Of a DNA stretch of 5,783 bases, positions 2,080 through 3,262 are shown in pieces (within the stretch, counting starts at the first letter, position 1; each line of letters begins with the position of its first letter). A program made the translations under genes and the position numbers. The DNA lies in IMG/VR virus record IMGVR_UViG_2778261643_000011; one strand, written 5' to 3'. A model generated the notes under the pieces. That model was not told where the DNA came from, did no database searches, and was given only the letters and a program-made list of their open reading frames with translations. This DNA is from a virus (taxonomy: Duplodnaviria; Heunggongvirae; Uroviricota; Caudoviricetes).

Positions 2080-2364
2080 ATGCAGATGGAGCTAATAAGC
2101 CGCAAGGAGTTCGATAGTCGGGTAACTAGCGGTGAACTCGACAACTTGCAGGCTATCAAGGTGAAAGAAGGCTTTTGCCTCATTGGGAATCAGAGCGGAA
2201 CAAATCGCGTTTTTATGCTTCGCCGTACGGATCTGAAGCCATTTGTCTGGAAGAACGAAATTGGTCCCAGCTCATACGCTCAAACGAGGGGGTGCCATAA
2301 CCTGACCTTCTTCTACAAAGACGAGCTTTCTGTGGTTGATATTCAAGGGTTACAACATGTTTAA
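2080..2364 (+). CDS. uhr: hypothetical protein (94 aa) upstream of the rdgC homolog
   Basis: ATG at 2080 with AGGAG Shine-Dalgarno (2068-2072) 7 nt upstream; the track's longer version from 2008 lacks an RBS. Its last 8 nt overlap the next gene's start (2357-2364). No recognisable domain. Symbol is by positional analogy to phage P1 uhr (upstream of hrdC), not by sequence recognition. Confidence 0.55.
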
Positions 2365-3262
2365 GCACTGGAAAAACATTTCTATTTATAAAGTTTCTCG
2401 TGAGGCGGATCTGACCGACTTAGAAGATAAAAATAAAATGATCCTATTCACGCCATGCGGTAGCCAGGATATGGCCAAGTTCGGTTTTGTATCGCCATTT
2501 GGTGATAATTCCGAAGTGATCGCTATGCATGGAAATGGCTTTATCCTTGTTGAAGCAAAGCGCGAAACAAAAATTCTTCCCTCGCCGGTTATCCAGCGAG
2601 CTATTCAAGAAAAAATTGAAAAACTTGAGCAAGAACAAGCGCGTAAACTGAAGAAAACAGAGAAGGACTCCCTGAAAGACGAAGTTCTGCATTCTCTTCT
2701 GCCACGGGCTTTTTCAAAGTTTTCTGTTATCCAGGCGATCTACGACGGTTCAACTAAACGTATCTATATCAATGCCAGCGCACGGCAGGCAGAGGATATG
2801 CTCGCGCTTATGCGTAAGTCTCTGGGTTCTCTTCCTGTTGTTCCCCTGAGTGTTGAAAATCCCATTGAATCAACGCTGACCGACTGGGTACGTGATGGTA
2901 GTGCTCCACAGGGATTTCAAATGGGGGATGCGGCAGAACTTAAGGCAGTGCTTGAGGATGGCGGTATTGCTCGAGTGAAAAAGCAGGATTTGGGAAGCGA
3001 TGAAATTTCCACACACCTGGAAGCTGGCAAGCTCGTCACAAAGTTGGCACTCGACTGGCAGAACCGCATTAAATTTACACTGGACCATAATTTCAGCCTT
3101 ACCAGCGTCAAATTTGCGGATGAATTGCTTGAGCAGAACTCTGATATTGATAGTGAAGATGTTGCGCAGCGACTGGACGCAGATTTCTTCCTGTTAACCA
3201 GTGAAATTTCGTGCCTGGTTGATGCTCTGGTAAATGCCCTGGGCGGAGAGGCTAAGCAGTGA
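2357..3262 (+). CDS. hrdC: RdgC-family recombination-associated protein homolog
   Basis: 301-aa ORF whose length and blocks ([83 protein letters not shown]-terminal LGGEAKQ) correspond to bacterial RdgC as I recall it. ATG at 2357 is chosen over the track's TTG at 2336 because it aligns with the RdgC N-terminus and has an AAGGG element 7 nt upstream. Stop overlaps the next gene's start (GTGA). Confidence 0.85.

Follow-up and report, generated by a model that had tools for sequence, protein, structure and literature searches.

The uhr-hrdC-dmt operon of P1 and P7 in a segment bounded by insertion-sequence ends: an RdgC homolog between a small lineage-specific protein and a two-domain methyltransferase

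RdgC of Escherichia coli is a toroidal dimeric DNA-binding protein that inhibits strand exchange by RecA. Four fingertip residues (R97, K98, K100 and K101) are needed for its loading onto circular DNA (Briggs et al. 2010, PMC2965237), and two gate residues (R118 and F120) together with four residues of the horseshoe (Q212, E218, H222 and K227) keep the toroidal dimer stable and are required in vivo (PMC2965237). Homologs are widespread among phages, being present in 448 phage records. No experiments on any phage-encoded RdgC homolog, and none on the P1 proteins HrdC or Uhr, were found in the searchable literature. P1 offers a tractable system for such proteins.

The closest described locus is the uhr-hrdC-dmt operon of the phage-plasmids P1 and P7. 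In P1, dmt is under C1 control and was measured by rt-qPCR to be induced during lytic development (PMC4713147), and RNA-seq of P1vir shows concordant shifts of uhr, hrdC and dmt (bioRxiv 10.64898/2025.12.28.696737). The Dam-type domain of Dmt methylates GATC, and P1 requires methylation at pac for packaging; dmt is for this reason indispensable in hosts that lack Dam (review PMC12707154). In a standard host, a genome-wide CRISPRi screen of P1 found uhr, hrdC and dmt all non-essential for plaque formation (PMC10695390).

A P1/P7-type segment between two insertion-sequence ends

The window, that is, the whole stretch of DNA that was analysed, is 5,783 nucleotides long. When the whole window was compared with phage records by megablast, P7 and P1 matched positions 60-5720 at 96.9% identity. 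The P1-type segment is 100% identical to a plasmid of an ETEC strain of E. coli in RefSeq, and of 5426 complete E. coli genomes, 458 contain at least 80% of the window. The identity to P1 and P7 and the spread in E. coli genomes place the feature in a well-studied phage-plasmid family. The operon in the window is uhr-hrdC-dmt, previously annotated in P1 (GenBank AF234172) and P7 (AF503408), the two records from which annotation was taken, with the operator Odmt (Op68) and the promoter Pdmt. As a discovery it is minor, since the annotation of P1 and P7 has included it for some two decades in a form almost identical to the copy in the window. Its features are as follows.

Under the P1/P7 match, minus strand: upfA, mlp, ppfA, upfB and upfC, from the P1/P7 annotation
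Under the P1/P7 match, plus strand: uhr (upf64.0 in P7), hrdC and dmt (dam in P7), then the ban operator, from the P1/P7 annotation
1992-2008, plus strand: monovalent C1-repressor operator Odmt (formerly Op68), ATTGCTCTAATAAATAT, with one mismatch to the 17-bp consensus
2008-2037, plus strand: sigma-70 promoter Pdmt, with -35 hexamer TTGTTT (2008-2013), 18-nt spacer and -10 hexamer TACCAT (2032-2037), from the P1 annotation
2068-2072, plus strand: Shine-Dalgarno sequence AGGAG of uhr, 7 nt before the ATG
2080-2364, plus strand: uhr, 94 aa (ATG at 2080, TAA at 2362-2364), read from the sequence
2357-2364, plus strand: uhr/hrdC junction ATGTTTAA, an 8-nt overlap, read from the sequence
2357-3262, plus strand: hrdC, 301 aa (ATG at 2357, TGA at 3260-3262), read from the sequence
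3259-3262, plus strand: hrdC/dmt junction GTGA, a 4-nt overlap, read from the sequence
3259-5277, plus strand: dmt, 672 aa, P7-type allele (GTG at 3259, TAA at 5275-5277), read from the sequence
5268-5295, no strand assigned: bivalent C1 operator Oban a/b, with 0 and 2 mismatches on opposite strands, annotated in P1/P7

The two ends of the window, 1-59 and 5721-5783, are non-P1 sequence. The first matches a repeat found directly 3′ of IS91-family transposase genes on many plasmids, and it shortens upfA to a 45-aa open reading frame (52-189, minus strand). The second is the left end of IS2, which here lies in the ban leader, 3′ of the ban operator. Both being insertion-sequence ends, the P1-type segment is bounded by two such ends. 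Among the minus-strand genes, mlp and ppfA (201-533 and 367-789) form an overlapping pair with matches to Rz-like spanin PHROGs (phrog_30284, E 2e-74; phrog_89, E 7e-23); P1 labels them "membrane lipoprotein" and "possible periplasmic function", respectively. The 94-aa product of upfC (1626-1910) is PAAR-motif-like, with a Pfam PAAR_motif score of 26 bits, slightly under the cut-off of 27, and a match to PHROG 281 at E 2.5e-30; it may be a tail-spike tip protein. The window contains no tRNA and no Rfam match. Two Chi sites (GCTGGTGG) lie at 1094-1101 and 4492-4499, both on the plus strand and thus in the same orientation, against 0.19 expected in 5.8 kb, which is consistent with an earlier remark that the genome is Chi-rich.

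Transcription unit and overlapping junctions

A preliminary description of this DNA had proposed that the three genes share one operator-bearing promoter and overlap at their junctions. The promoter is borne out by the operator match, by the P1 and P7 annotation and by a phylogenetic footprint. A consensus scan found three C1 operator matches in the window, where 0.01 would be expected by chance. Odmt adjoins the -35 hexamer of Pdmt, is the same sequence in P1 and P7 and is kept in Salmonella and Cronobacter relatives; the bivalent operator Oban a/b overlaps the dmt stop codon at the start of the next operon, ban. The Pdmt hexamer positions were carried over from the P1 annotation with an offset of 1441, and a generic consensus promoter scan did not pick this -35/-10 pair. 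An alignment of the intergenic region from six P1-like elements (the window, P1, P7, two Salmonella elements and Cronobacter phage JK004) leaves only three conserved islands, namely the operator core, a TGTTTTTT block and TA(C/A)CAT, in a spacer that has otherwise diverged. The latter two are invariant or almost so across all six. Retention of nothing but operator, -35 and -10 upstream in a diverged spacer is good comparative evidence of function. With a single Pdmt adjoining a single C1 operator, the operon would be expected to be off in the lysogen and on at infection or upon C1 inactivation.

The genes downstream are packed without intergenic space, and the P1 and P7 records both assign the operator to all three. 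Within them the generic consensus scan revealed no convincing promoter or terminator. Promoter-like sites in the operon are weak and number three, compared with 5.2 expected from shuffles of the scanned region; uhr, hrdC and dmt contain weak terminator-like hairpins and no strong terminator. The first strong terminator lies at 5461-5480, past the ban operator. This element is an intrinsic-terminator-like hairpin with a T-run, located in what P1 annotation calls a "dicF-like region" (roughly 5392-5493), which matches no Rfam family, DicF included, at the gathering score.

The overlaps themselves, 8 nt of the form ATG...TAA and then GTGA, are present exactly as first described. The uhr/hrdC junction ATGTTTAA recurs letter for letter in P1, P7 and two Salmonella loci (L003 and L007) whose Uhr is 64-70% identical, and judged by coordinates JK004 has the same 8-nt overlap; it is thus held in relatives at 64-80% protein identity. 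The relatives' hrdC/dmt junction is instead TGATG or TAATG, in which an ATG start overlaps the stop by 1 nt. Overlaps are frequent in P7: of the 31 pairs of adjacent CDS on the same strand in its first 50 kb, 10 overlap, by 1-14 nt, and the pairs proA/proB and lydD/lyz provide further overlaps of 8 nt. Unrelated small genes overlap rdgC in the same manner in a Nonanavirus. The junction form is real and not distinctive. Overlaps in about one third of P7 same-strand pairs are no sign of stoichiometry or partnership, so the stoichiometric co-expression that had been read from them does not follow. Overlapping stop and start codons, each gene having its own Shine-Dalgarno-like sequence upstream, make coupled and coordinated translation most likely, though not necessarily equimolar.

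Gene content of the operon varies among relatives. JK004 carries an extra gene of 191 aa (L009, 6180-6755) between hrdC and dmt, so that coupling of these two is not obligatory. The Salmonella P1-like elements carry an extra gene 3′ of dmt, of 205 aa (L003, 9717-10334) or 232 aa (L007, 9681-10379). All of these extra genes have overlapping junctions, and none has a Pfam match.

The three encoded proteins

HrdC matches the Pfam family RdgC (PF04381) at 330.6 bits (cut-off 25) over profile positions 3-298 of 298, and the NCBIfam models NF001462 (379, cut-off 330) and NF001464 (289.9, cut-off 227), but falls below the E. coli-type equivalog NF001460 (417 vs 501). It also matches the crystal structure of E. 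coli RdgC (PDB 2OWL) with an E value of 2.4e-112, and is 61% identical to that protein over its full length. The P1, Salmonella and Cronobacter homologs are 73-98% identical to the window protein. All four fingertip residues are identical in HrdC of the window, P1, two Salmonella elements and JK004, and the two gate and four horseshoe residues are likewise identical in these five phage sequences. By every sequence test applied, HrdC is a full-length member of the RdgC family. In the P1-like phages of records ON470615.2 and ON470617.2, the hrdC annotation is divided into RdgC1 and RdgC2, and tblastn coverage takes two pieces; the split would reflect a pseudogene with a frameshift or else an error in sequencing.

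Uhr is 99% identical to P1 Uhr and to P7 Upf64.0. Compared with its Salmonella homologs it has a pN of 0.20-0.23 and a pS of about 0.8, at which synonymous sites are saturated, and a dN/dS of 0.03-0.11 where computable. These substitution rates mark uhr as a real gene that is kept by purifying selection. Homologs were sought among 5.8 billion proteins by a word-indexed search and among 1.84 billion cluster representatives with a profile HMM; both returned P1-like sequences or fragments, the single exception across the two being a marginal 19-residue match to P0031 (E 4e-5). Uhr occurs in 19 phage records, all P1-like, and these include all records with an HrdC that shares 70% or more identity with that of the window. 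It is always joined to hrdC and never found without it in phage records, and it is missing from those whose RdgC homologs are less than 60% identical to the window HrdC. No family match was obtained from Pfam (even at E 10 and with four divergent homologs), NCBIfam (E 1) or PADLOC. The predicted structure is mixed alpha/beta, a moderate and non-robust fold model for which an eL38-like small alpha/beta fold served as comparison.

Several re-annotated RefSeq phage records, NC_005856.1 and NC_050152.1 among them, label uhr "nucleoside triphosphate pyrophosphohydrolase", apparently from PHROG 2213, the PHROG of Uhr itself, which bears that label; P1 and P7 are among the phages whose RefSeq annotation carries it. 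With no Pfam or NCBIfam match to such an enzyme and no pyrophosphohydrolase among the structural hits, the label looks unsupported.

Dmt combines an N-terminal C5-cytosine domain with a C-terminal Dam-type N6-adenine domain. The first is matched by Pfam DNA_methylase (PF00145, 122.5 bits) and TIGR00675, and the second by MethyltransfD12 (PF02086, 190.9 bits) and TIGR00571 dam (249.5). The translation shows the signature motifs GTPCQAFS and DPPY, and both catalytic domains are present. The GTG start is forced, since C5 motif I follows only eight codons on and the ATG close by, at 3275, is out of frame. At 672 aa the enzyme has the length of P7 Dam, compared with 754 aa for P1 Dmt, to which it is almost identical outside one cassette that separates C5 motifs VIII and IX (window 3979-4158, about aa 241-300), the location of the target-recognition domain. 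This cassette comprises about 60 aa in the window and P7 and about 140 unrelated aa in P1. In the Salmonella and Cronobacter enzymes it extends to 200-250 aa and contains window-type and P1-type blocks plus a third. The pattern looks like shuffling of recognition domains or a multispecific C5 methyltransferase, and the high dN/dS between window and P1 Dmt (0.56) reflects the variable cassette. For all three genes, these results agree with the initial reading of the translations: Pfam, NCBIfam and PDB 2OWL identify the second product as an RdgC homolog, both Pfam domains and TIGR00571 identify the third as a methyltransferase, and the first, described as a 94-aa protein of no recognisable fold, keeps its orphan status. 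That reading had not identified the locus as the P1/P7 operon.

Proposed function and relation to known systems

Taken as a whole, the locus is best explained, with a probability of roughly 80%, as an early operon of P1/P7 type in which a C1-controlled Pdmt and coupled translation would deliver methylation by Dmt, an RdgC-like HrdC and the accessory protein Uhr. The operon would be switched on early in lytic growth. Dmt would then methylate new phage DNA at the adenine of GATC and add a C5-cytosine activity. HrdC would be a host-derived and intact RdgC, most likely forming a ring-shaped dimer that clamps duplex DNA and may limit RecA filament activity or strand exchange on replicating phage DNA. 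As a best guess from its adjacency, Uhr would be a small accessory protein of the P1 lineage that assists or tunes HrdC. The homology makes a DNA-clamping ring that restrains RecA plausible for HrdC; that it blunts RecA-dependent host responses, as had been suggested, is speculative. The role of Uhr as an HrdC partner is likewise speculative, drawing on homology and on adjacency, which is weak evidence. Its stronger form is quite unlikely, namely that Uhr is a dedicated partner of the RdgC ring (loading it, conferring specificity or antagonising host RdgC or RecA, for example) and that the coupled uhr-hrdC pair constitutes a P1-lineage module through which SOS signalling or RecA-dependent recombination is reshaped on replicating, Chi-rich phage DNA. 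P1 is rich in Chi and encodes the RecA-interfacing proteins Ref, a RecA-dependent nuclease, and HumD. With this Chi richness and Ref, a plain role of inhibiting RecA fits awkwardly, and the CRISPRi result implies that any RecA-related role is conditional or subtle. If HrdC activity or a role of Uhr were demonstrated, the operon would illustrate the tuning of host recombination by a temperate phage-plasmid in its lytic phase.

Small, lineage-restricted early phage proteins without homologs are typical of anti-defence genes. Uhr fits this profile, and it is possible, though unlikely, that Uhr and perhaps HrdC are independent accessory or anti-defence cargo beside a protective methyltransferase, with Uhr acting on a host target and having no functional link to HrdC. 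Such cargo would sit well with the gain and loss of family-less genes in the operon of JK004 and the Salmonella elements, with the non-essentiality of all three window genes in the laboratory, and with overlaps being routine in the P7 genome. It sits less well with the constant association of Uhr with hrdC and with an exact ATGTTTAA junction kept at 64-70% protein identity. Uhr and HrdC also match no PADLOC model, which counts little since that library holds defence rather than anti-defence proteins. The overlaps bear equally on whether the genes form one transcription and translation unit at all. Internal promoters for hrdC or dmt, with the overlaps reflecting mere compact packing, would find a candidate in a promoter-like site inside hrdC that matches 9 of 12 positions (2411-2439) and another in a late promoter predicted within P7 dam. 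Promoter-like sites are, however, fewer than in shuffled sequence, upstream conservation is limited to the Odmt/Pdmt block, no gaps separate the genes, and both P1 and P7 annotations give the operator to all three. There is accordingly little to support separate expression, which we consider very improbable.

A further alternative concerns HrdC itself, which might act as lambda RexA does, as a non-specific DNA-binding dimer that biases the lysis-lysogeny decision or mediates exclusion rather than opposing RecA. The RexA structure is reported to resemble RdgC (PMC11077077), and a 2025 survey of lambdoid phages raises this function for RdgC homologs beside cI (PMC12315714). The position of hrdC under a C1 operator instead points to lytic rather than prophage expression, and HrdC retains 61% full-length identity to E. 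coli RdgC with all tested dimer-interface and fingertip residues intact. On sequence grounds HrdC is an orthologue-like copy of RdgC and not a distant relative of RexA type, and the RexA-like role is highly unlikely. The preferred reading thus remains the early operon with an RdgC-like HrdC and Uhr as its accessory.

Set against described systems, the locus is closest to the P1/P7 operon, whose gene order, junctions (ATGTTTAA and GTGA), operator and promoter hexamers are all identical to those of the window. The P1 proteins are 99% (Uhr) and 98% (HrdC) identical, and nucleotide divergence is about 3%. Two features set the window apart: the variable cassette of its C5-methyltransferase is of the P7 type, in contrast to P1, and its P1-type segment is flanked by the end of an IS91 element at 1-59 and that of IS2 at 5721-5783, unlike in the P1/P7 operon. 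The cassette recalls the multispecific C5-cytosine methyltransferases of the Bacillus phages SPR and phi3T, to which Dmt can be likened: Dmt has a single variable cassette in the target-recognition region between motifs VIII and IX, and its relatives have two to three such blocks in tandem. Dmt differs from these enzymes in its fusion with a Dam-type domain.

RdgC homologs of other phages (PHROG 724; Vibrio, Pseudomonas, Klebsiella, Nonanavirus and others) resemble hrdC in lying in an early region among tightly packed small open reading frames, but are at most 59% identical to HrdC, and none is accompanied by Uhr. A general module of RdgC, methyltransferase and small protein was considered and was not seen in the three other-phage contexts inspected. 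There the neighbours of rdgC include NinB/Orf, HNH and unknown small genes; in one Vibrio phage an N6-adenine methyltransferase lies on the opposite strand, about 3 kb from rdgC. The pairing of hrdC with dmt is therefore an arrangement of the P1 lineage rather than a general module. With respect to E. coli RdgC, the toroidal inhibitor of RecA strand exchange, HrdC shares 61% identity and all ten residues discussed above; it differs in being encoded by a phage, controlled by a repressor and placed behind a coupled, lineage-specific small gene.
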